A DNA stretch of 64,000 nucleotides from positions 2,655 to 66,654 of the forward strand of contig DATMOO010000150.1 of the NCBI GenBank assembly GCA_035568275.1, given 5' to 3'. Below the pieces are notes generated by a model. The model searched no databases, had not been told where the DNA came from, and was given only the letters and a program-made list of their open reading frames with translations. Position 1 is the first letter of the stretch. Each line of letters starts with the position of its first letter. The stretch is from Candidatus Sulfotelmatobacter sp. GTDB taxonomy: Bacteria; Acidobacteriota; Terriglobia; Terriglobales; Acidobacteriaceae. Both the position numbers and the translations under genes were made by a program. Below, piece after piece: positions 16,679 to 60,418 of this stretch.

Positions 16679-17800
16679 CTATTTCATTTCTTGTGTGACG
16701 ATGTGGACATCGACAGGCGGAGCATCGCGCAAGAATTTATGGATCGCCGAAAGATAGAGATACCGCTTCCACCCTTTCTGGGCTGAGCGTCCGAAGACGA
16801 CCTGGGTGATATGGTGCTCTCTTACAATCTTGGCAACTTCTTCTGCGACATTCTTCCCCTTGGATCGAATCACCTTGGCTCCGAGATTTTCGGCAAATCG
16901 TAAGTTCTGTGCCAGGCTCCTTTGATCCTCTGGCTCCTCGTCGGCGCCCACATCAATATATAGGACGTAGAGCTCCGCATCGATCCGCTGCGCCATTCGC
17001 CCGGCTCGCGCGATCAGGTATTGTGCCGCCGGACTGGAGCTGACACAGACAGCAATTCGCTCCCGCAATGCCAGATTCTTGCCTAACCCTTCGCGTTCCA
17101 GGTACGATTCGAGGCTTCGGTCAACCGCCCCGGTGACCTGTTGCAGCGCTAGTTCGCGAAGCGCGATCAAGTTGCCAGGCCGGAAAAAATGTCCGAGCGC
17201 CCTTTCTGCACGGTCGAGGGGATAGACATCCCCGCGTCGCATCCGCGTCTGCAGGGCCTCCGGCGTCAAGTCAGCGAGCACGATCTCATTGACCTTCTGC
17301 ATGACCCAGTCAGGCACTGCCTCGCGAACCTGCACTCCAGTAATGTTGAGGACCGTTGGAATCAGGCTCTCAATATGCTGCACGTTCATGGTCGACAGCA
17401 CATCGATGTTTGCATCCAACAAGTCCATCACGTCCTGGTAGCGCTTGGAGTGCTTGGTGCCCTCGATATTGGTGTGCGCTAGTTCATCGACAAGTACAAC
17501 CTGGGGCTTCCGCGCCAGGATGGCGTCCAGATCCATCTCATCGAAAGTTGCACCTCTGTACTGGATCTTGCGCCGCGGTACTGTTTCCAACTTCGCTGCC
17601 AATTCCACAATCCCCGCCCGCCCGTGGGTCTCCACGATTCCGATGACCACGTCTTCGCCGCGGCTATGGCGCCGGATTCCCTCGCTGAGCATGTTGAACG
17701 TTTTCCCAACGCCAGGAGCGTAGCCCAAGAAGAGCTTGAAAACAGGCTCTTTCTTGCGTGGCGTGGTTTCTTCCAGCCACTGTTCGGGTGTCTTGGGCAT
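16679..17800 (-). CDS. kdpD: KdpD N-terminal sensor module only (KdpD domain with P-loop plus Usp domain); no TM or kinase part
   Basis: 373 aa. It has FKLFLGYAPGVGKTFNMLSEG, VVIGIVETHGR and VVLVDELAHTN...DVLSTMNVQHIESL, which match the KdpD N-terminal domain, followed by a Usp-like segment (RIAVCVSSSPAAQYLI...). The protein ends before any TM segment. Confidence 0.85.
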   Translation of the reverse strand: MPKTPEQWLEETTPRKKEPVFKLFLGYAPGVGKTFNMLSEGIRRHSRGEDVVIGIVETHGRAGIVELAAKLETVPRRKIQYRGATFDEMDLDAILARKPQVVLVDELAHTNIEGTKHSKRYQDVMDLLDANIDVLSTMNVQHIESLIPTVLNITGVQVREAVPDWVMQKVNEIVLADLTPEALQTRMRRGDVYPLDRAERALGHFFRPGNLIALRELALQQVTGAVDRSLESYLEREGLGKNLALRERIAVCVSSSPAAQYLIARAGRMAQRIDAELYVLYIDVGADEEPEDQRSLAQNLRFAENLGAKVIRSKGKNVAEEVAKIVREHHITQVVFGRSAQKGWKRYLYLSAIHKFLRDAPPVDVHIVTQEMK

Positions 17801-17852
17801 GCGTATGTATTATCCTCGTAACCGTTCAGAAGTCGAGTTGGAATCCTCGCAC

Positions 17853-19295
17853 ATGAAGCGACAGCTTAACAATCCGATCCTGCGGCTACTTGCTTCCGTC
17901 TTGATTGTGGCGGGAATCGTGTTGCTGTTCTCGCGGTGGCTGCATGTGAACCCGACGACAGTCGGATTCAGCTTCCTGCTTGCCGTCTTGCTGATCTCTA
18001 CCACCTGGGGCTTGCGCTACGCAATCTTCACCGCGTTTCTCGCAACGGCTGCCTACAATTTCTTCTTCTTGCCCCCGCTCTTCCGGTTCACCATCGCCGA
18101 CCCGCAGAACTGGATCGCGCTCGTAGCTTTTCTTGTTACTGCAGGCGTGGCCAGCCAACTCTCGGAGCGGGCCCGGCGCGGAACAGAGTATGCGGACCAG
18201 CGCAGAAGGGAAGTGGAAAAGCTGTACGCATTCAGCCAACAGCTGTGGTTGAGCGAGAATGTGTTCGAATTGCTGAATGTCATTCCGAAACATCTGGTGG
18301 ATGCATTCGATGTCAGCGGCGCGGCCCTGTTTCTTGACGGGAAGCAGGAGGCGTATTTTCTGGATGATCGCAGCCGAACCTTGTTCCCGAGCGACCAGCT
18401 GAAATCGATCAGCGATCGTGGCGAACCGGTTCTGGATCGTCAGCAGCACGTCTGCTATATGCCAGTGCGTATGGGAGTGAGATCGGTCGGCGCTCTGGGG
18501 CTGGCCGGATGCATTCTCTCGCGCGAGAGCCTGGAGGCAATTGGCAGTCTTGTCGCGATCGCGATCGAGCGCGCCAACACTGTCGAAAAACTAACTCGAA
18601 GTGAAGCGGCCCGCGAAAGTGACCGGCTTCGTTCGGTCTTGTTGGATTCGGTCACTCATGAGTTCCGCACGCCGCTAACTTCGATTAAGGCATCAGCCGA
18701 AACACTTCTCTCTAACACGAATCTCGACCCAGCCCAGCGCACTGATCTGCTCCAGGTAATCAATGAAGAAAGCGACCGGCTCAATCGCCTGGTCGGTGAG
18801 GCCGGAGAGGTCGCCCAACTGGACGCCCACCAACTCCATTTTCAAATCGAACCGCATCAGATGCGCGAAGCCGTCGATCAGGCCGTTAAGAATTCCCAGC
18901 CGGCATTGCGCAACCATCCTCTCGAAATCTCGATCTCACCAAACCTTCCTCCGGTTCGAATGGATTTCGAGCGAATCACCGAGGTGATCTCGCAACTTCT
19001 GGATAATGCAGGAAAGTATTCCTCGGCGCAGGCTCCTATTCACATCATTGTCGAGGCGGAGGGATCGGAAGTGGTCACGAGTGTAGCGGATCAAGGTCCT
19101 GGCATCGACCAGATGGAACAAGAAATGATTTTCGAGAAGTTTTATCGCGGCCGAGATCAACGCATGCTGATGCCCGGCACGGGTATGGGACTTCCGATTG
19201 CGAAAGCGATCGTCGAATTGCACGGAGGCAAGATCGGCGTGATCAGTCAGCTGGGTCGAGGCTCGGTGTTCCATTTTTCGCTGCCCGCGGAGTAA
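17853..19295 (+). CDS. kdpD: Membrane histidine kinase equivalent to the C-terminal half of KdpD (DUF4118-type TM bundle, GAF-like, HisKA, HATPase_c)
   Basis: The start is taken at ATG 17853 (MKRQLNNPILRLLASVLIV). It has a TM bundle (LLAVLLISTTWGLRYAIFTAFLATAAYNFFFLPP.F.F...P.NW), an H-box (SVTHEFRTPLTSIKASAETL) and N/G boxes (LLDNAGKYS, DQGPGI, GTGMGLPIAKAIVELHGG). It is divergent from the kdpD-N gene across only 52 bp. Confidence 0.85.
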   Translation: MKRQLNNPILRLLASVLIVAGIVLLFSRWLHVNPTTVGFSFLLAVLLISTTWGLRYAIFTAFLATAAYNFFFLPPLFRFTIADPQNWIALVAFLVTAGVASQLSERARRGTEYADQRRREVEKLYAFSQQLWLSENVFELLNVIPKHLVDAFDVSGAALFLDGKQEAYFLDDRSRTLFPSDQLKSISDRGEPVLDRQQHVCYMPVRMGVRSVGALGLAGCILSRESLEAIGSLVAIAIERANTVEKLTRSEAARESDRLRSVLLDSVTHEFRTPLTSIKASAETLLSNTNLDPAQRTDLLQVINEESDRLNRLVGEAGEVAQLDAHQLHFQIEPHQMREAVDQAVKNSQPALRNHPLEISISPNLPPVRMDFERITEVISQLLDNAGKYSSAQAPIHIIVEAEGSEVVTSVADQGPGIDQMEQEMIFEKFYRGRDQRMLMPGTGMGLPIAKAIVELHGGKIGVISQLGRGSVFHFSLPAE

Positions 19296-53100: not shown

Positions 53101-53424
53101 CTGAGTGGCGTAGCCGTTGATCTTCTCCGGAATCTGAATCGAGCGCCGGAAGACGCGAGTCCCGGTCCAATGTTCCTCATTCGCATGCTGACCTCCCGGA
53201 CCCGACACATTCTTTACAGTGAAGATGCCCCACTCCGAATCCCTCAAGCCGGGATCTTCCGGATGCGGAATGTCACTATTAAAACGCCACTCGGATTCGG
53301 CTTGATGAGTGAGCGAGTTGAGCCGATCGAGAGTCGCCTTGTAAGGTTCTGCAGCAGTGTTCTGGCAAAAGCCGGCAGCAGCAAAAAGGAGTGGAAAGAG
53401 GACGAAAAAAGCGCAACGCTTCAT
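50143..53424 (-). CDS. Alpha-mannosidase, GH38
   Basis: The start is taken at MKRCAFFVLFPLLFAAAGFCQ (signal peptide). It has GH38 core motifs (AVGNSHIDMAWLWPW, GGMWVEPD.NMP.GESLVRQ, WNPDSFGY). Confidence 0.9.
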   Translation of the reverse strand: MKRCAFFVLFPLLFAAAGFCQNTAAEPYKATLDRLNSLTHQAESEWRFNSDIPHPEDPGLRDSEWGIFTVKNVSGPGGQHANEEHWTGTRVFRRSIQIPEKINGYATQGARVWLDLRFGSPGRLMITVFSNGAVLYRGDDDNILPVLLTESAQPAQKFLVAARVVGPDTVQSEFFHSELTIDAPKSRPDPARLRLELLASRPIIAAYEDGKAERERQLQAAVQAVDFSPLEKGDQAAFDTSLKSAHAKLEVLKPWLQQFTIRAVGNSHIDMAWLWPWTETVEVVRNTFNSVLDLMREYPDFKFTMSSARTYEWMQEKYPDIYHQIEQRVKEGRWELVGGMWVEPDLNMPDGESLVRQILVGKRYFQKNFGVDVKIGWNPDSFGYNYQLPQIYKRSGMDYFVTQKLMWAHEFTTFPYKFFWWQAPDGSRLLTYFPHDYADPIDAEPLGSQVAQWMPSIYGPKITDRPEMMHLYGVGDHGGGPTRVMLDHAEQLRAPDTVFPKLEFSFASEFFSDMEKKLPSMQVPTWDGELYFQYHRGVFTTQAETKRRIRRSEENVLNAEKFASLALLYGRPYPQEVMTQTWKNLLFDHFHDIMPGSGIAVNYLDAKRNLENVDRAANEVTYGSVREIAAHVNTQGEGTPVILFNSLSWPRTEVSEIEVQLPAPARQIEVVDSTGKPEEAQLLSIDPDTHRARFLLLSNTPPLGYQTYFARGVASASPVHSPLKATADSLENEFIRVKIDPQTGCMTSLYDKKSGTEALAPAETDTGGPRNATCGNLLQTFADKPKQWDAWNIDADFEKQHWDLDKADEVKLVESGPLRAIIRVKNHFQNSTFVRDIILYAGVPRVDVKMDAEWHEKHILLKVAFPVSAHSDKATYEIPFGSVERPTTRNTPAEQAQFEVPAQRWADISDGKHGLSLLNDSKYGYDAKGNVLRLSLLRSPEWPDPHADEGHHEFTYSLYPHAGGWKDALTIRRGYELNYKLIAIPVGKYQGNLHAEHSFLQAKSDNVIVTAVKKAEDDNALVVRFYEWAGKQGDVAIQLPTGATSASETDLMERPMGNLSVSNGEVTVPTKPYEIKTVKVQFSGMPEMAGDRQ

Positions 53425-53615
53425 AATTAAAGACGCTACCTTTCTAGCCAAATGAAGGTGGGATACAGGCTGCCAAAGCAACGAAAGATTATCACTAACC
53501 GCTTGCAAGGAAGCTAAGTTGTTGATTTTACAGTGTTGAGAGGTGTCTGAGTGATAATGCAAAAATTCTGATTCCTTTTATCGAAATTTTGAGTCTAAGC
53601 CGGAGAACAGTAATG

Positions 53616-53644
53616 TTGACGGGCGCCAGTTGAGCCCGTAGAAT
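53616..53644 (+). promoter_or_regulatory. Sigma-70-type promoter TTGACG-N17-TAGAAT
   Basis: The -35 element is at 53616-53621 and the -10 element at 53639-53644, with an exact 17-nt spacer. The leader ATG is only 10 nt after the -10 box. Confidence 0.6.
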
Positions 53645-53654
53645 CAAACCTCGA

Positions 53655-53750
53655 ATGTCAGTGATCTCCAATCTTCGCGCGGTGTGCTGCTGCATCTGTT
53701 GTTGTTGTTGTGGATGCGTGCGCTCTGGCGCGGGGAGGCTGCTGACTTAA
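53655..53750 (+). CDS. Putative Cys-rich leader peptide (31 codons, 9 Cys) of the sulfite-reduction/cysteine-pathway operon
   Basis: Hand translation gives MSVISNLRAVCCCICCCCCGCVRSGAGRLLT-TAA, with Cys at codons 11-13, 15-19 and 21 (4 TGC, 5 TGT). It is not in the ORF track because it is too short. Confidence 0.6.
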   Translation: MSVISNLRAVCCCICCCCCGCVRSGAGRLLT

Positions 53751-53780
53751 GAATTTCTTCTTAAAGTAATAGCACTCATC

Positions 53781-53816
53781 AACCCACCGCCAGACGATCT
53801 GGCGGTGGGTTTTTTA
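53781..53816 (+). terminator. Intrinsic terminator / attenuator hairpin between the leader ORF and sir
   Basis: A perfect 14-bp stem AACCCACCGCCAGA / TCTGGCGGTGGGTT with a 3-nt loop, followed by T6. The sir ATG lies 12 nt after the T-tract. Confidence 0.8.
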
Positions 53817-53827
53817 GTGCCCCAAAC

Positions 53828-55555
53828 ATGACCGATACGACGACAAAAACGAAAAAAGAAACCGCGGCGCAGCGCGCGGAGCGCCTTAAGCGCGCCATGA
53901 ATCCCTGGGAAGGATTGGACGAGATCCGCCGCTTTGCGCGTGAGGGATTCGATTCGATCCCGCCCGAGTGGATCGGCACCTACTTCCGCTGGTGGGGCGT
54001 TTACACCCAGGGCGATGGTGCTGGCGTCACCGGCGGCCAAGGAGGCGTGGGGCGCGCGTTGCAGCGTTTCATGGTTCGCATCCGGATTCCCAACGGCATC
54101 ATGAGCTCGCATCAGTTGCGCGCCATCGCAGACCTCACTCGCCGCTACGCCAACGGAATCGCCGATCTCACCGTTCGTCAAAACATTCAACTGCATTGGG
54201 TCACGATTGAGTCCTTGCCAGAAGTTCTTGATGGCCTGTGGCGCGTGGGACTTAACACCACGGGAGCTTGCGGAGATGTCGTCCGCAACGTGACGGGTTG
54301 CCCAGTTGCTGGGGTCGATGCTGACGAGATTATCGACGCTTCACCTCTCGTGCTTGAAACATCGCAGTTGCTCGCGGGAAACTCGAAGTTCTACAACCTG
54401 CCGCGGAAGTTCAAGATTTCCATCGCCGGATGCCACTCCTGGTGCTCCTATCCCGAAATCAACGACATTGGCCTGACCGCGATCACGCGCACCGTCGGCG
54501 GGAAGAAGGAAGTTGGATTTTCCCTGCGTGTTGCTGGTGGACTATCGGCGGAACCTTATCTTGGTGCGCGCCTCGACGCATTTGTTCAGCAGGGTCAGGT
54601 CGTGCCAGTTATTAAGGGCATTGCCGAACTCTTCCGCGACTCCGAAGTTCTCCGCGAGCATCGCGAGCGCGCCCGCCTGAAGTTCCTCTTCCTGCGTCAT
54701 GAATGGACGGCTGAGCAATTTCTCGACGAGTTGCATCAGCGCCTCGGGTTCCGTCTCGATCCCGCCGCCGAAGAGCATCCTCCCGACGATGTGTATCGCG
54801 ACCACGTCGGCATTCATGCACAGAAACAGCCCGGTCTTTCTTACGTCGGAGCGGTAGTGCTGCGGGGACGAATTACGGCCGACCAGATGCAGTCGGCTGC
54901 CGATGTGGCCGAGCGCTATGCAAGCGGCGAACTCCGCGCGACCACCATGCAGAACCTGCTGGTTGTCAATGTTCCCACGATCAATGCCGACGCATTGGCC
55001 AAAGAGCTTGACGCAATTGGATTCCAGGTGAGCGGGTCAGCCTTCGCGCGCGGGGCAGTCGCTTGCAGCGGCACGGAATTCTGCAAGCTCGCGATTACAG
55101 AAACGAAAAGCTTCTCGCGTTGGCTAGTCGAGGAGATGGAAGAGCGCCTGCCCGGCTTCGATCAGCACCTGAAGCTGCACGTCACAGGATGCCCAAACAG
55201 TTGCGGACAGCACTGGATCGCTGATGTCGGGATTGAGGGCAAGAAGATCAAAGTCGCTGACGGCCTGGCCGATGCCTACTACTTCTGCGTCGGCGGCGCC
55301 CTCGGTCTTCATCAGTCGACAGCGCGCCCGGTAGGATATCGCTGCCTCGCCACCGAAGTACCGGATGCTCTGGAACGTTTGCTCGGGCGATATCTGGCTG
55401 ACCGCAATCCCGGGGAGAATCTGCGCAGATTCTTTTCCCGCCACAGTGACTCTGAACTGCGCGAGTTTTTGGCGGGCGAGAACGTGCCCGCGGTAGTACG
55501 CGATCTGCCCTCTCCCCAAAATTTGGTTCACCTGGCAGGAGGTATCGGTGACTAG
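53828..55555 (+). CDS. sir: Assimilatory sulfite reductase (ferredoxin-dependent, siroheme/[4Fe-4S] NirA/Sir family)
   Basis: 575 aa with two nitrite/sulfite reductase half-domains and a Cys cluster motif (ACSGTEFCKLA...VTGCPNSCGQHW). It shares an operon with siroheme synthesis genes and cysH, which favours sulfite over nitrite as substrate. Confidence 0.85.
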   Translation: MTDTTTKTKKETAAQRAERLKRAMNPWEGLDEIRRFAREGFDSIPPEWIGTYFRWWGVYTQGDGAGVTGGQGGVGRALQRFMVRIRIPNGIMSSHQLRAIADLTRRYANGIADLTVRQNIQLHWVTIESLPEVLDGLWRVGLNTTGACGDVVRNVTGCPVAGVDADEIIDASPLVLETSQLLAGNSKFYNLPRKFKISIAGCHSWCSYPEINDIGLTAITRTVGGKKEVGFSLRVAGGLSAEPYLGARLDAFVQQGQVVPVIKGIAELFRDSEVLREHRERARLKFLFLRHEWTAEQFLDELHQRLGFRLDPAAEEHPPDDVYRDHVGIHAQKQPGLSYVGAVVLRGRITADQMQSAADVAERYASGELRATTMQNLLVVNVPTINADALAKELDAIGFQVSGSAFARGAVACSGTEFCKLAITETKSFSRWLVEEMEERLPGFDQHLKLHVTGCPNSCGQHWIADVGIEGKKIKVADGLADAYYFCVGGALGLHQSTARPVGYRCLATEVPDALERLLGRYLADRNPGENLRRFFSRHSDSELREFLAGENVPAVVRDLPSPQNLVHLAGGIGD

Positions 55556-56180
55556 CTTATTTCCGATGTTCATGAAACTGGGAGGGAGACAGTGCTTGGT
55601 CGTTGGGGCCGGCAAGGTCGGCGAACCGAAGATCGCTGGCTTGCTCGAGACCGGAACGCGCATTCGCGTTGTCGCTCTCGACGCCAGCCCTGCCGTTCGC
55701 GAATGGGCACGCTCGGGGAAGATAGAACTCGAACTGCGCGCCTTTACCAATGACGACCTGCACGGAGCGTTTCTGGTCGTCGTCGCTACAGCTTCGCGCA
55801 CTCTGAATGAACGCATCTATCACGAGGCTCAAAGACTGGGCATCCTCTGCAACGTAGTCGATGTCCCGGAGCTCTGCGATTTCTTCTATCCGTCAATTGT
55901 TCGCCGCGGGGATTTGCAGATTGCGGTTTCGACCTCGGGGAAGAGTCCCTCCTTGGCGCAGAAAATCAGGCAACAGCTCGAAAAGCAGTTCGGGCCAGCC
56001 TACGCCGCCTGGGTGGCCGAGCTGGGCGAGACCAGGAAGCTCATTCTAGCCAGCGATCTCGACGAGGAGCGCAAACTCGATCTCCTTCATTCGCTGGCGA
56101 GCAAGGAAGCATTCGAAGCCGCTCTGGCAGAGAACCCCGAGTTGGCGGACGCACTCACCACGCACGGAGAAAAAGCATGA
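55548..56180 (+). CDS. sirC: Precorrin-2 dehydrogenase / sirohydrochlorin ferrochelatase (CysG N-terminal-like, SirC/Met8 type)
   Basis: 210 aa with a Rossmann motif (LVVGAGKVGEPKIAGLLETG) and ...IAVSTSGKSPSLAQKIRQQLE, as in the siroheme synthase N-domain. Confidence 0.8.
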   Translation: MTSLFPMFMKLGGRQCLVVGAGKVGEPKIAGLLETGTRIRVVALDASPAVREWARSGKIELELRAFTNDDLHGAFLVVVATASRTLNERIYHEAQRLGILCNVVDVPELCDFFYPSIVRRGDLQIAVSTSGKSPSLAQKIRQQLEKQFGPAYAAWVAELGETRKLILASDLDEERKLDLLHSLASKEAFEAALAENPELADALTTHGEKA

Positions 56181-56986
56181 AGGGGAGAGTTTCTTTAGTT
56201 GGGGCAGGGCCCGGCGATCCAGAGTTGCTGACCGTGAGAGGTCTGCGATTGCTGCAGACAGCCGACGCTGTCTTGTATGACGAGTTGGTCTCTGCTGAGA
56301 TCCTGAATCTGATTCCGGCAGCGGCGCAGCTGCACAATGTCGGCAAACGATGCGGAACGAAGAGGATCCAGCAGGAAGAGATCAACTTCTTGATGATTGC
56401 CCTCGCGGACTCTGGTTTGAAAGTAGTTCGTTTGAAGTCTGGCGACCCCATGATTTTCGGCCGTGCCGGCGAGGAGATCGAAGCTCTTCGCAAAGCGAAC
56501 ATTGATTACGAGATTGTCCCCGGGGTGACGTCCGCACTAGGAGCCGCTGCATCGGTGGAGATACCGCTGACGCATCGCCGCGAGTCGTCAGCCGTTGTAT
56601 TTCTCACAGCGCATCAGGCTTCGAACAGCGCGGCGGCAGACTGGAGCAAACTGGCCGGAAGCGGCGCCACTCTGGTGATCTACATGCCCGGCCACAATTA
56701 CGCGGACATGTCGGCTAAATTGAAAGCCGCGGGCCTGCCCAACGACACGCCCTGCGCGATCGTTTCCCGCGCGACCACCCCGGACCAGCAGACGTTTCGC
56801 ACTAGCGTCGGCGAGTTGCCGGTCTCTCCCACATTGCCTGCTCCGACTCTGCTTGTGGTCGGTGATGTCGTCCGACATGCCGCCGATGACCGGTCCCAAT
56901 TTGCTTCGAGCGGCAGCGATTCTATTCCTGCTGAATTGGTTTCGGTTTTCCATGCAGAGTCCATTCAAGAGGAGCCAGTCGCGTGA
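56177..56986 (+). CDS. cobA: Uroporphyrinogen-III C-methyltransferase
   Basis: VSLVGAGPGDPELLTVRG, VVRLKSGDPMIFGR and IVPGVTSA are SUMT signatures. Confidence 0.9.
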   Translation: MKGRVSLVGAGPGDPELLTVRGLRLLQTADAVLYDELVSAEILNLIPAAAQLHNVGKRCGTKRIQQEEINFLMIALADSGLKVVRLKSGDPMIFGRAGEEIEALRKANIDYEIVPGVTSALGAAASVEIPLTHRRESSAVVFLTAHQASNSAAADWSKLAGSGATLVIYMPGHNYADMSAKLKAAGLPNDTPCAIVSRATTPDQQTFRTSVGELPVSPTLPAPTLLVVGDVVRHAADDRSQFASSGSDSIPAELVSVFHAESIQEEPVA

Positions 56987-57756
56987 AAGATCTCAGTCAG
57001 CCCTCCACCCCGATCGACGACCAACTGCAGGTTGCCCAAGTGCAGGCCGTCGCGGAAACCTGGTCTCCGCAGCACGTTCTAAGTTGGGCATTCCGGACGT
57101 TTGGCAAGAAAGTAGCCATCTCGTCGGCATTCGGCGTGGAAGGAATGGTGCTGATCGACATGGCGTCGCGCATCAGCAAGAACTTCCGCCTGTTCACAAT
57201 CGATACAGAGTTCCTGTTCGCGGAAACCTACAACCTGATGGACCGGATCGAAGAGAAGTACGGAATCACCATCGAAAGGGTTTACTCCACGCTCTCGCCG
57301 GAAGAGCAACAGCGAGTGCACGGCGAGGCTTTATGGACCAGCAACCCCGATCTATGCTGCAATCTGCGCAAGGTCGAACCGCTGCGCCGCAAGCTAGACG
57401 AATTGAGTGCGTGGATCACGAGCATCCGTCGCGATCAAACATCAGTACGTTCGGGAGCGAAGCGAATCGAGTGGGATGCGAAGTTCGGTCTGGTGAAAGT
57501 CAACCCCATTGTGGACTGGACGTCGAAGCAAGTGTGGCGCTACATCCATGACCATGATGTCCCGTACAACGCGCTTCACGATCAGGACTATCCCAGTATC
57601 GGCTGCACTCATTGCACCCGCGCTGTCAGGCCCGGAGAAGACCCGCGCGCCGGCCGTTGGCCCGGCTTTAACAAGACTGAGTGCGGGCTGCACATCATCG
57701 AGCCGCTTCCAGCATCGTCACAGGTGCAAGCGGCGACCGCAGAAGGCGGCGATTAA
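56983..57756 (+). CDS. cysH: Adenylylsulfate (APS)/PAPS reductase, thioredoxin-dependent, Fe-S type
   Basis: PAPS_reduct fold with C-terminal KTECGLH. The CC pair (LCCNLRKVEPL) plus CxxC (GCTHCT) are the [4Fe-4S] ligands typical of APS-specific CysH enzymes. Confidence 0.9.
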   Translation: MKDLSQPSTPIDDQLQVAQVQAVAETWSPQHVLSWAFRTFGKKVAISSAFGVEGMVLIDMASRISKNFRLFTIDTEFLFAETYNLMDRIEEKYGITIERVYSTLSPEEQQRVHGEALWTSNPDLCCNLRKVEPLRRKLDELSAWITSIRRDQTSVRSGAKRIEWDAKFGLVKVNPIVDWTSKQVWRYIHDHDVPYNALHDQDYPSIGCTHCTRAVRPGEDPRAGRWPGFNKTECGLHIIEPLPASSQVQAATAEGGD

Positions 57757-57765
57757 CATCGGCAC

Positions 57766-59211
57766 CTACCCGGCCTCACAGAACGCGCTGGAAATTCCTC
57801 CCCAGTCGCGCGCCGGCTCGAGTTTGGGAAAGAAGACGCTGTGGAGGCGGCGCACCGATTCTTCAGCCTTCGACTCATCGACTAGGAACGATAAAGTGCG
57901 TTCCGATGCCCCCTGGCAAAGAACGCGTACATCCATGTCGGAAACGGTCGCGAAGAGCTGGCTCGCCACTTCTGGTTGACGCCGGATATTCTCCCCGACG
58001 AGACAAACGAGTGCCTTATGATTCTCCCATCGTACGTCGGCGACTTGCTGCAGATCCTCGACAATCTTCGGCAGCGCTACGTTCGAACCAACCAACAGTG
58101 AGATTCGGTCGACCGAAGTCCCCATCACATCCACCGCACAGGTGTACTGCTCAAGCACCCCAAACACGGTATTCAGCAAAGCAGCATCGACCCCGCGCCG
58201 CGACTGGATTTCGAGCGAGACAATATTTCGTTTTGCGGTGATGGCGCTTACGCGGTTTCCCGTGCTCGCACGCGCCATAATTTCAGTTCCATGTCCCTCG
58301 GGGTGCCGCGAGTTCAACACATAAACAGGGATGTTCTCTCGCATTGCCGGCGCAAGAGTTGCCGGATGCAGTACCTTGGCTCCAAAGTGCGCCAGGTCAG
58401 CAGCTTCATCGAAGCTTAGCTTGCGGATCACGCGCGCATCGGAACAGATCTTCGGGTCCGTCGTCATGACTCCGTCAACATCCGTCCAGATCTCGACTCG
58501 CGACGCTCCTACGGCCGCTCCGACAATCGCAGCGCTGCAGTCCGACCCGCCGCGCCCCAGGGTGGTGGGAACTCCGTCAATGGTCGAGGCAATAAAGCCA
58601 CCAAGAACTGGAATGCTCCCCGCCTGCAGAAGAGGATTCAAAACGTCTCGAAGGCGCTGATTGGTTACGTCCCACAGCGGACTTGCTTGTCCGTGGCGCG
58701 CATCGGTGACGATGCAACTGCGCGCATCAACATGCGCAGCCTGCAACCCGGCTTCGCAGAGCGCCCAGCTGACCAGCCTGCTCGAGAAGCATTCCCCAAA
58801 GCTCAGCAATCGATCCTGTGCCTTAAGGTCAAAGTAACGGGAGGTTTCCAGATCGTGTAGGAACGATTCCAATGCTTGTAATTCGCCGCGCAGCTCTCGG
58901 TCCAGCGAGCCATACGCCGAAGCGCTGAGAAGCGAATCAGCCAACTCCTCGTGGCGAACGTAAATGTTTCGAACCGTTGCGAGAGCCGATCCCAAATGGC
59001 CCTTAGCAGCGGCATGCCCGGCCTCCAACAGGTGGTCGGTAACTTTCGCCAGCGCGCTAATAATTAACACCGGCTTTGCGCCTAGTCTGCCGTCAACAAT
59101 GCTGATGACTCGTCGAATAGCGGCTACGTCCTCGACAGACGTCCCGCCGAATTTCATGACCACCACATCCTCGCCGCGTTCAAATCTGCTTTGTCGCTGT
59201 GAACCGCTCAT
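57766..59211 (-). CDS. lysC: Aspartate kinase (monofunctional, with C-terminal ACT domains)
   Basis: VVMKFGGTSV, ...VLGGFIASTIDGVPTTLGRGGSDCSAA... and ...IWTDVDGVMTTDP are present. The ATG at 59211 has GGAG 11 nt upstream. Confidence 0.9.
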   Translation of the reverse strand: MSGSQRQSRFERGEDVVVMKFGGTSVEDVAAIRRVISIVDGRLGAKPVLIISALAKVTDHLLEAGHAAAKGHLGSALATVRNIYVRHEELADSLLSASAYGSLDRELRGELQALESFLHDLETSRYFDLKAQDRLLSFGECFSSRLVSWALCEAGLQAAHVDARSCIVTDARHGQASPLWDVTNQRLRDVLNPLLQAGSIPVLGGFIASTIDGVPTTLGRGGSDCSAAIVGAAVGASRVEIWTDVDGVMTTDPKICSDARVIRKLSFDEAADLAHFGAKVLHPATLAPAMRENIPVYVLNSRHPEGHGTEIMARASTGNRVSAITAKRNIVSLEIQSRRGVDAALLNTVFGVLEQYTCAVDVMGTSVDRISLLVGSNVALPKIVEDLQQVADVRWENHKALVCLVGENIRRQPEVASQLFATVSDMDVRVLCQGASERTLSFLVDESKAEESVRRLHSVFFPKLEPARDWGGISSAFCEAG

Positions 59212-59238: not shown

Positions 59239-59283
59239 GCCCAAAAGCAAAACCCACCGCCAGATTGCTTCTGGCGGTGGGTT
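59239..59283 (-). terminator. Intrinsic terminator / attenuator hairpin in the aspartate kinase leader
   Basis: The same 14-bp arms (AACCCACCGCCAGA / TCTGGCGGTGGGTT) with a 5-nt loop, followed on the minus strand by TTTTGCTTTTGG. It lies 27 nt upstream of the lysC ATG. Confidence 0.65.
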
Positions 59284-59315
59284 TCGGTGATCTTGCTTAA
59301 GATTGCTTTACTTCA

Positions 59316-59411
59316 TCATCCGTTCCCGTCCTCCAGAAGGCACGTAATTCGTGTCGACATGCCTGTGCCTGTCGATGTAATTCGCTTCGCCTTCTGGACG
59401 AGGGTGCTCAT
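59316..59411 (-). CDS. Putative leader peptide (31 codons) rich in aspartate-family residues, upstream of aspartate kinase
   Basis: Hand translation of the minus strand gives MSTLVQKAKRITSTGTGMSTRITCLLEDGNG-TGA. It contains 6 Thr, 2 Ile, 2 Lys and 1 internal Met. There is no obvious SD. Confidence 0.35.
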   Translation of the reverse strand: MSTLVQKAKRITSTGTGMSTRITCLLEDGNG

Positions 59412-59515: not shown

Positions 59516-60418
59516 CTAGGCATCCACCTTCTTCATATGCGTCGCAAACTGCCGTAAAAGGGCCACAAATGCAGTCGATGCCACCGAAAGCGTGCGGTCG
59601 CGACGGTACGCCAGTCCCAGTTCACGATAGAGTTCCGCATCTTCAAGGTCGATTAACTTAACCCGTCCTGCATCCACTTCGTCGCGAGCAAACGACGCGC
59701 TGATGAGTGATACCCCCAGATCGGCTGCCACAAAGCTCTTGATCATCCCAATGCTCGGTAACTCCATCCGCACCTGCAGTTCAGCATTGTGCGGCCGGAA
59801 CAGCTTGTCCAGAAGCCTGCGCGTGTGACCGGTCTTCGGAAACAGCAGCGGATGCTTCACGATCTCGCTAACCGGCACGACTTTGTGCTTGGCCAGCGGA
59901 TTCTTCGGGCTCACCATCAGCATCAGTTTGTCGCGAAAAATTGGCTGGATCTTCAGGCTGGGAGACTGAATCGGCAGCGTCAGAATGCCCACTTCCACCG
60001 CGCCGTTTTCGAGTTTCTCCACGATCTTGTAGCTGAAATTGCGATAGATGCTGATCTGCACCGGGGGATACCGCCGGCAGTATTCCGCAAAAACCTCCGG
60101 CAGGACATACAAACAAGTGGCCTCGTTGGCCCCGACGCGCAGGGTGCCGCGAGGAGTGGTGCTGTGGTCGGCAACCGCTGTGAGCGACTCATCCCGCAGA
60201 TTCTTAAGGCGCTCGGCGTACTCGTAGAAAATTTGTCCGGCGGGCGTCAGCTTCACGGTTTTGCCAGAGCGGTCGAGCAGGCGGTCACCGTATTCCTGCT
60301 CCAGTTGGCGGATCTGCGCGCTGACCGCCGACTGTGAACGAAACACCTTTTCCCCCGCACGGGAAAAACTGCCCTGTCTGGCGACTTCCAGGAAGGTAAT
60401 GAGTTGATCAAAGTCCAT
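59516..60418 (-). CDS. LysR-family transcriptional regulator, divergent from gltB (GltC-like arrangement)
   Basis: N-terminal HTH (FDQLITFLEVARQGSFSRAGEKVFRSQSAVSAQIRQLE) and a LysR substrate-binding domain. Confidence 0.85.
   Translation of the reverse strand: MDFDQLITFLEVARQGSFSRAGEKVFRSQSAVSAQIRQLEQEYGDRLLDRSGKTVKLTPAGQIFYEYAERLKNLRDESLTAVADHSTTPRGTLRVGANEATCLYVLPEVFAEYCRRYPPVQISIYRNFSYKIVEKLENGAVEVGILTLPIQSPSLKIQPIFRDKLMLMVSPKNPLAKHKVVPVSEIVKHPLLFPKTGHTRRLLDKLFRPHNAELQVRMELPSIGMIKSFVAADLGVSLISASFARDEVDAGRVKLIDLEDAELYRELGLAYRRDRTLSVASTAFVALLRQFATHMKKVDA

Follow-up and report, generated by a model that had tools for sequence, protein, structure and literature searches.

We conclude that the short leader in front of the sulfite/nitrite reductase gene sir in a 64-kb stretch of a Candidatus Sulfotelmatobacter sp. 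genome (contig DATMOO010000150.1; "the window" below means this whole stretch) is very probably a ribosome-mediated, i.e., leader-peptide, transcription attenuator that senses charged tRNA-Cys. The leader holds a short Cys-rich open reading frame (ORF) and a hairpin of the intrinsic terminator type. An original prediction had proposed this reading, and it is supported by the conservation of the leader, by selection on its codons and its RNA, by covariation in the terminator, by a model of ribosome positions and by the occurrence of related leaders at other sulfur operons.

The individual elements of the leader, collected in Table 1, were re-read in the sequence and agree with the original prediction. 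The promoter TTGACG-17-TAGAAT matches 10 of 12 consensus positions and is the sole sigma-70-like site within 53300-54000. The leader ATG stands 10 nucleotides (nt) past the -10 box, and no Shine-Dalgarno motif was found in CAAACCTCGA, the sequence preceding it. The translation of the ORF contains the nine Cys in codons 11-21 as well as the (TGT)5 run that had been described. Thirty nt past the leader stop a perfect hairpin of 14 base pairs (bp), nine of them G-C, is formed with -26.6 kcal/mol and is followed by six T, and the ATG of sir lies 12 nt past this T-run. This distance leaves no room for a separate promoter, so that sir can only be transcribed by read-through. Because the upstream neighbor of the leader is a divergent GH38 mannosidase gene, the hairpin does not terminate any upstream gene. 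Within the leader ORF, TCTGGCGCGGGGA (53724-53736) shares 10 of its 13 positions with TCTGGCGGTGGGT, the 3' arm of the terminator, and this copy of the arm had also been pointed out before. The fold of the whole leader region (-76.5 kcal/mol) is far more stable than that of shuffled sequences (z = -6.0), none of 200 shuffles being equally stable. If region 4, the terminator 3' arm, is absent, the predicted anti-terminator between 53724-53741 and 53770-53794 reaches -28.8 kcal/mol. The downstream genes carry Pfam and NCBIfam annotations that agree with the proposed sulfite-reduction/siroheme/cysH operon. Among 15 billion sequences the leader peptide has no call as a protein; leader ORFs of this family are short ORFs that no gene caller has reported in this set.

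Table 1. Positions of the leader elements, the downstream operon and the second candidate leader in the window.
Feature	Position	Strand	Description
Promoter	53616-53644	+	-35 box TTGACG (53616-53621), 17-nt spacer, -10 box TAGAAT (53639-53644)
Leader ORF	53655-53750	+	31 codons, MSVISNLRAVCCCICCCCCGCVRSGAGRLLT and stop; predicted near-leaderless, no Shine-Dalgarno motif
Putative regulatory Cys codons	53685-53717	+	nine Cys, codons 11-21; (TGT)5 at 53697-53711
UGU-loop hairpin	53692-53717	+	stems 53692-53697 and 53712-53717; top of the region 1:2 structure in the minimum free energy fold
Region 1	53675-53682	+	UCGCGCGG; predicted partner of region 2 (53725-53733) in ribosome-free RNA, minimum free energy fold
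Region 2, candidate anti-terminator 5' strand	53724-53741	+	UCUGGCGCGGGGAGGCUG, within leader codons 24-29; mimics the terminator 3' arm
Region 3, candidate anti-terminator 3' strand	53770-53794	+	conserved GGCAC-UyAU block and terminator 5' arm AACCCACCGCCAGA (53781-53794)
Intrinsic terminator	53781-53815	+	14-bp stem, CGA loop, T6 run; hairpin 53781-53811, T6 53810-53815
sir	53828-55555	+	NIR_SIR, NirA/Sir-family sulfite/nitrite reductase (Pfam, NCBIfam)
Siroheme-synthase N-terminal-domain gene	55548-56180	+	Pfam, NCBIfam
Uroporphyrinogen-III methyltransferase gene	56177-56986	+	Pfam, NCBIfam
cysH	56983-57756	+	phosphoadenylyl sulfate (PAPS)/adenylyl sulfate (APS) reductase (Pfam, NCBIfam); operon under putative control 53828-57756
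Aspartate kinase gene	57766-59211	-	
Second attenuator candidate	59243-59411	-	upstream of the aspartate kinase gene
Thr/Ile-rich leader ORF	59316-59411	-	31 codons, MSTLVQKAKRITSTGTGMSTRITCLLEDGNG
Thr/Ile leader terminator hairpin	59251-59283	-	14-bp stem identical to the sir terminator stem

A genome scan with the Sir protein gave 80 further loci, hence 81 together with the window, at a Sir identity of 69-99%. In nearly all cases the record titles name Acidobacteriota (Terriglobales, Acidobacteriaceae, Ca. Sulfotelmatobacter); other phyla stand in the titles of a few metagenome-assembled genomes (MAGs). The relatives that a homolog search with Sir brought up all had 85% identity or more, and the sampled breadth corresponds to Terriglobia with Sir at or above about 67%. 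The complete architecture of promoter, poly-Cys ORF, terminator and terminator mimic precedes sir in 81/81 loci, so the short Cys-rich ORF and the hairpin, whose conservation had been proposed as a check, are both kept upstream of the orthologs. In every locus the ORF ends with CCCxCCCC.C.V.SGAGRLLT directly before the stop codon and lies 50-165 nt ahead of sir; the homologous ORFs encode 26-32 amino acids (median 30). A hairpin with a G+C-rich stem of 12-14 bp, a stability of -20 to -30 kcal/mol and a run of T4-T8 is likewise present in all loci. A promoter of the form TTGAC-(16-18)-TANNNT was found in 76 of the 81, with an in-frame ATG 7-10 nt past the -10 box (mode 10). As no Shine-Dalgarno sequence can fit into this distance, the mRNA is probably leaderless or nearly so. 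In the alignment of the leaders (A1) the -35 box TTGAC, the -10 box TAGAAT and the block TCTGGCGCGGGGAGGCTGCTGAC are conserved, the stop codon falls into one column and the indels are multiples of three. In addition, 1.56 Mb were scanned on both strands with a generic signature (at least four Cys in seven codons near the end of an ORF, followed by a hairpin of -14 kcal/mol or lower and a T-run). This gave 176 matches, of which 175 belong to the present leader family and one is probably a chance match; the combination of ORF and hairpin is more than chance.

Several MAG records with a typical Terriglobales sir or cysK locus (L003, L038, L019, L057, P0060 and P0188) carry other titles, namely Eisenbacteria, Verrucomicrobiia, Solibacter, Acidiferrales, Dormibacteraeota or Saccharimonadales. 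These titles are probably binning or labelling errors and not a true spread of the element.

Per-column entropies were split by codon position for three segments of the leader. The N-terminal codons vary freely at positions 1/2/3 (1.40/1.45/1.33 bits), i.e., there is no selection at the peptide level. In the Cys run (0.53/0.44/0.87 bits) the identity of the codons is selected, and since TGC and TGT interchange with Cys being kept and the third position is the most variable one, the ORF appears to be read as codons and is probably translated. Codons 22-31, which contain region 2, are equally frozen at all three positions (0.54/0.53/0.58 bits), which points to a constraint on the RNA; the CUGGCG at 53725-53730 is invariant across the sir family. 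The last 24 codons of 170 leaders contain 5-11 Cys (median 8). TGT makes up 61% of the Cys codons in the leaders (355/586) versus 9% in the adjacent sir genes (81/891), a bias that resembles the rare sensor codons of classical leaders. The core TGTTGTTG (A1 columns 139-146) is invariant even at wobble positions, though the neighboring genes prefer TGC. The length of the (TGT)n run had been suspected to change in frame by slippage: it does range from 2 to 6 repeats between lineages, and nothing suggests phase variation.

Covariation is clearest in the terminator, where 94.8% of the cells are paired and compensatory double changes occur at 8 pairs; none of 500 shuffles reaches this value and all slid controls are exceeded. 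RNAalifold independently recovers a 5-bp hairpin that loops out the poly-UGU run, and in this hairpin 10-12 sequences have changed on both sides.

The presence of this terminator bears directly on the best of the alternative explanations, translational attenuation of the mycobacterial type, in which the hairpin would occlude the initiation region of sir and a stalled ribosome would open it, termination being secondary or absent. In the window the sir ATG is indeed merely 12 nt away from the hairpin, and the sole poly-Cys leaderless small ORF (sORF) that has been dissected experimentally acts in this way (10.1101/834739). However, the hairpin is a textbook intrinsic terminator at 81/81 loci and no Shine-Dalgarno sequence, which could be sequestered, was found at the sir start of the window. 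Moreover, the distance from hairpin to start ranges between about 12 and more than 100 nt at sir and is 110-140 nt at cysK (see below), so that an occlusion of the start region is not conserved. We therefore regard translational attenuation as unlikely.

Pairing of region 2 with region 3, the predicted anti-terminator of the transcriptional switch, extends over 79% of the cells across the family compared to 32-48% in slid controls. With region 1 masked and region 4 absent, at least 8 of the 12 nt of the terminator arm are sequestered in 81/81 loci. The switch was then modeled in 73 loci with a three-state partition function of the nascent RNA, in which the probability of the anti-terminator was the readout. 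The median of this probability is 0.16 for ribosome-free RNA (0.93 in the window), rises to 0.96 when a ribosome is stalled on the TGT core (0.93 in the window) and falls to 0.01 when the ribosome stands at the stop codon (0.02 in the window). With a stalled ribosome and masked upstream RNA the anti-terminator is predicted in all 73 loci. In the ribosome-free ensemble the core of region 2 pairs upstream in 40/73 loci, the window not being among them.

Five loci with diverged terminator arms (L077, L039, L061, L071 and L072) were inspected for a compensatory change in region 2. By eye the change is suggestive for L077, but duplexfold gave no support for it and the candidate was dropped.

Taken together, the attenuator would work as follows. 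Transcription would start at the leader AUG or within a few nt of it, and a ribosome would load without a Shine-Dalgarno sequence and read the 31 codons while the RNA polymerase heads for the terminator. When Cys-tRNA is plentiful, the ribosome would reach the stop codon and occupy or unwind region 2; after its release region 1 would pair again with region 2, leaving the terminator 5' arm free for the 3' arm, and the transcript is predicted to end at about 53815, 12 nt short of sir. When Cys-tRNA is scarce, the ribosome would stall on the mostly rare UGU codons (53685-53711) and melt the region 1:2 structure. Region 2 would stay exposed during the stall because it lies about 14 nt downstream, and it would then pair with region 3 including the terminator 5' arm, by which the terminator would be blocked. 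The polymerase could thus read into sir, the two siroheme genes and cysH, and the supply of sulfide for cysteine synthesis would rise. The scheme predicts that transcripts terminate, that cysteine changes the outcome and that regions 2 and 3 pair in the cell.

Homologous leaders were also found on other sulfur operons. A pattern derived from the leader, TGTTGTTGTTG..CTGGCG..CGCCAG, was run against metagenome sequences and matched at least 119 stretches, of which about 21 are chance matches. At least 98 of the matches listed are leader-like by an automatic T-run criterion, or at least about 95 after dropping L089, L102 and L106, in which the peptide is not leader-like. At least 77 of the leader-like matches have a Sir match of more than 150 amino acids with 67-99% identity, and most others are too short downstream to tell. 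Among the matches listed, five leader-like ones precede other genes: an equivalog-level CysK (L180), PAPS reductase together with RidA (cysH-ridA; L122 and L123), a rhodanese (L117) and a YeiH-family putative sulfate exporter (L152). A covariance model (R1), which was built from sir-type leaders only, detects all of these, with 95 bits for cysH-ridA, 37-53 for cysK, 47 for the rhodanese and 34 for the YeiH-type transporter, and the leaders therefore form one RNA family. CysK homologs that were picked by protein similarity alone, including one from a Ca. Korobacteraceae MAG, all have their own poly-Cys leader and terminator. These cysK-type leaders (e.g., MMLCCQICRFCACCCCGKRPSGENEIVE) carry the -10 box 9-10 nt before the ATG and share with the sir-type leaders the Cys codons and a UCUGGCG-type RNA segment, whereas the remaining peptide differs and ends in the unrelated tail PSGENEIVE.

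In the cysK-type loci (L200, about 2330-2500; L202, L203, L205 and L180) the roughly 110-140 nt between terminator and cysK start hold conserved blocks, GCGCATCGGA ... GTGCGGT ... TTCGCC ... GCGGGCC ... GGAG, which could be a further regulatory RNA element. An Rfam scan of these loci gave no match.

A second candidate leader was found within the window itself. R1 also matches 59242-59347 on the minus strand with 40 bits, just upstream of an aspartate kinase gene. The leader ORF at this site is rich in Thr and Ile and holds CUUCUGG, the complement of the CCAGAAG that tops the 5' arm. At least 13 related loci keep this arrangement in synteny, with peptides that contain 18% Thr, 10% Ile and a single Cys; it has no Rfam match. 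Its logic recalls thrL before thrA in Escherichia coli. The Thr/Ile leader is an internal control, since the terminator module is constant and the regulatory codons follow the downstream pathway; both leaders together are a natural example of modular attenuator evolution.

These two further leader types also help to judge a functional Cys-rich micropeptide, e.g., a metal- or redox-binding peptide or the precursor of a ribosomally synthesized and post-translationally modified peptide, that would be encoded beside sulfur genes, with the hairpin as a common terminator that leaks. The conservation of the ORF, which extends to the C-terminal motif V-x-SGAGRLLT, would be expected for such a peptide. 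Nevertheless, its N-terminal residues are neutral, the C-terminal block is equally conserved at the three codon positions as in a constraint on nucleotides, the cysK-type leaders keep the Cys codons and UCUGGCG yet have an unrelated tail, sir has no promoter of its own and the Thr/Ile leader employs the same module. A micropeptide is thus very improbable. We give no more credit to a terminator that is controlled by a ligand or a protein, riboswitch-like or through an RNA-binding protein, and in which the Cys-rich frame is incidental. It would fit a structured leader that has a terminator, lies ahead of biosynthetic genes and is assigned to no Rfam family, as a hitherto unknown class of RNA might be, but not the synonymous exchange of TGC and TGT that keeps Cys, nor the in-frame indels, the fixed stop codon and the fixed spacing from promoter to start, nor the fact that the type of codon tracks the pathway, with Cys at the sulfur genes and Thr/Ile at the aspartokinase. 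Finally, a dispersed repeat or mobile terminator that came to lie by chance beside a Cys-rich ORF is hardly credible, because the identical 14-bp stem, although present twice (53781-53811 and 59251-59283), occurs at no other site in the 64 kb, both copies are syntenic across many genomes, each is preceded by a conserved short ORF with a codon bias fitting the downstream pathway, and the generic signature has practically no other occurrence in 1.56 Mb.

Several points weigh against the Cys-sensing attenuator. We know of no demonstration of leaderless translation in Acidobacteria, and the 10-nt gap between the -10 box and the ATG may leave a 5' untranslated region of 2-4 nt. The two anti-terminator strands hardly vary, so that there is essentially no covariation in the 2:3 pairing, and in single loci their complementarity is marginally above that of composition-matched shuffles (mean z = -1.9; p = 0.03-0.1); because of these weak single-locus statistics the argument for the anti-terminator rests on its conservation. 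The lower 1:2 helix, which was derived from the window, is paired in 64% of the cells compared to at most 57% in slid controls and shifts its register between loci; it was left out of the evidence, and the covarying upper hairpin was kept. In 31/73 loci, including the window, 2:3 is already favored at equilibrium without a stalled ribosome. Given this ensemble, default termination at these loci would have to come from a ribosome that is translating or terminating, or from folding kinetics, and in the window not from a stable 1:2 helix. The original prediction also stated that a ribosome at the stop codon masks the mimic segment. This holds for one half of the strand, the 3' one (a ribosome there would cover about 53733-53760), but the CUGGCG core would be left physically uncovered. 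For the cysK-type leaders the three-state model gave mixed, less clear-cut results. Furthermore, Sir scores below the NCBIfam equivalog cut-offs, and the identical stem in two different leaders means that part of the stem invariance reflects duplication of the module.

The spread of the leaders allows a wider, tentative suggestion, for which we see slightly less than an even case. Terriglobia may run a cysteine "ribulon", in which homologous leaderless poly-Cys leaders control transcription termination at sir-cysH, cysK, cysH-ridA, the rhodanese and the YeiH-type transporter by one portable terminator/anti-terminator module, which was also recombined with Thr/Ile codons for aspartokinase. If so, attenuators in this lineage would evolve by swaps of the sensor codons on a fixed RNA switch, and the run of rare, invariant UGU codons would have been tuned for sensing.

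Some observations were made on the remaining genes of the window. Pfam annotation of its rest revealed no further sulfur genes. A gene for a LysR-family regulator (59516-60418, minus strand) adjoins both leader loci and could add a layer of transcriptional control. It is not CysB; among NCBIfam models it comes closest to the selenium-metabolism-associated LysR family, with 200 bits against a cut-off of 250. Other poly-Cys ORFs in the window (13035+, 32621- and 50639-) turned out to be off-frame stretches within long genes. Apart from this, the KdpD sensor-kinase domains seem to be split over a pair of ORFs, 16679-17800 (minus) and 17736-19295 (plus), in the neighborhood of kdpABC and a response regulator gene, one ORF with the KdpD N-terminal and Usp domains and the other with DUF4118, HisKA and HATPase.

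In comparison with known systems the sir leader adds a new family to a kind of regulator that is well known, and does not found a kind of its own. It shares with trpL, hisL, leuL, thrL, pheL and ilvL of Proteobacteria the short leader ORF with a run of end-product codons, the intrinsic terminator directly ahead of the first structural gene and, by prediction, a segment with two alternative partners, upstream sequence and the 5' arm of the terminator. In leuL the sensors are rare synonymous codons, as they would be here. The differences are that cysteine would be sensed, that the leader appears to be leaderless or nearly so and has no Shine-Dalgarno sequence, that the phylum is Acidobacteriota, and that the predicted anti-terminator strand is part of the ORF, 18-25 nt ahead of the stop codon, and does not follow the stop. 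There is no sequence homology and no membership in an Rfam family: in a scan of the window leader with Rfam 15 the best match was His_leader (RF00514) with 22.2 bits against a gathering score of 49 (E = 0.22), a weak architectural likeness below threshold, and Leu_leader (RF00512) reached 13.2 against 50. The T-box for tRNA-Cys and the S-box/S-adenosylmethionine riboswitch of Firmicutes are functional analogs that control termination by tRNA charging or by a sulfur metabolite. They have no translated leader, and none of the T-box or riboswitch models of Rfam matches the window or the cysK-type leaders.

The original prediction knew of no characterized Cys attenuator in this lineage. For Acidobacteria this stands, as our search of the freely accessible literature found no report of one, whereas Cys leaders are known or predicted in other phyla. 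Closest is the mycobacterial "Cys ribulon" (Canestrari et al., 2020, 10.1101/834739; also PMC13236596), where a leaderless or near-leaderless sORF with consecutive Cys codons is likewise the first gene of cysteine and sulfur operons, several operons have such leaders and the ribosome pauses when Cys-tRNA is scarce. In the dissected case, however, control is translational, by a duplex that sequesters the downstream ribosome-binding site without a terminator, whereas the sir leader has an intrinsic terminator and a predicted anti-terminator; also, the mycobacterial leaders are described as independently evolved and the Terriglobales leaders, from another phylum, are homologous to one another. 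The Cys leader candidates of Actinobacteria (Seliverstov et al., 2005, PMC1262725) are short ORFs with Cys runs near the stop upstream of cys or cbs operons, but "without obvious terminators", and Rho-dependent termination was proposed for them; in the present family the conserved terminator is unmistakable. uORFC-8-2 before cysS in Rhodobacterales (Brewer et al., 2021, from the Breaker laboratory, PMC8632094) is a predicted ribosome-mediated attenuator of the terminator type, too, with Cys codons within a stem and a U-run. It has two tandem Cys codons, mostly UGC, would control a tRNA synthetase gene and belongs to Alphaproteobacteria, whereas the leaders described here have 5-11 Cys and the sir leader precedes a biosynthetic operon; there is no sequence similarity, and the two are set apart by gene context, taxon and length of the Cys run.

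Acidobacteriota are an abundant soil phylum with almost no predicted attenuators of assigned function (PMC2965389). The sir leader would be the first attenuator family defined in this phylum and the first well-supported classical terminator/anti-terminator leader-peptide attenuator with cysteine as its signal and a cysteine-biosynthetic operon as its target. In uncultured Terriglobia, among them Ca. Sulfotelmatobacter, it provides a cis-regulatory marker by which sulfur-assimilation genes can be recognized. It would extend the idea of the "ribulon" from mycobacteria to a second phylum, with transcription and not translation as the output. What it would add to the systems known so far is the spread over several operons, a terminator switch of the classical type behind a near-leaderless start, a sensor made of rare codons and the reuse of the module with Thr/Ile codons.

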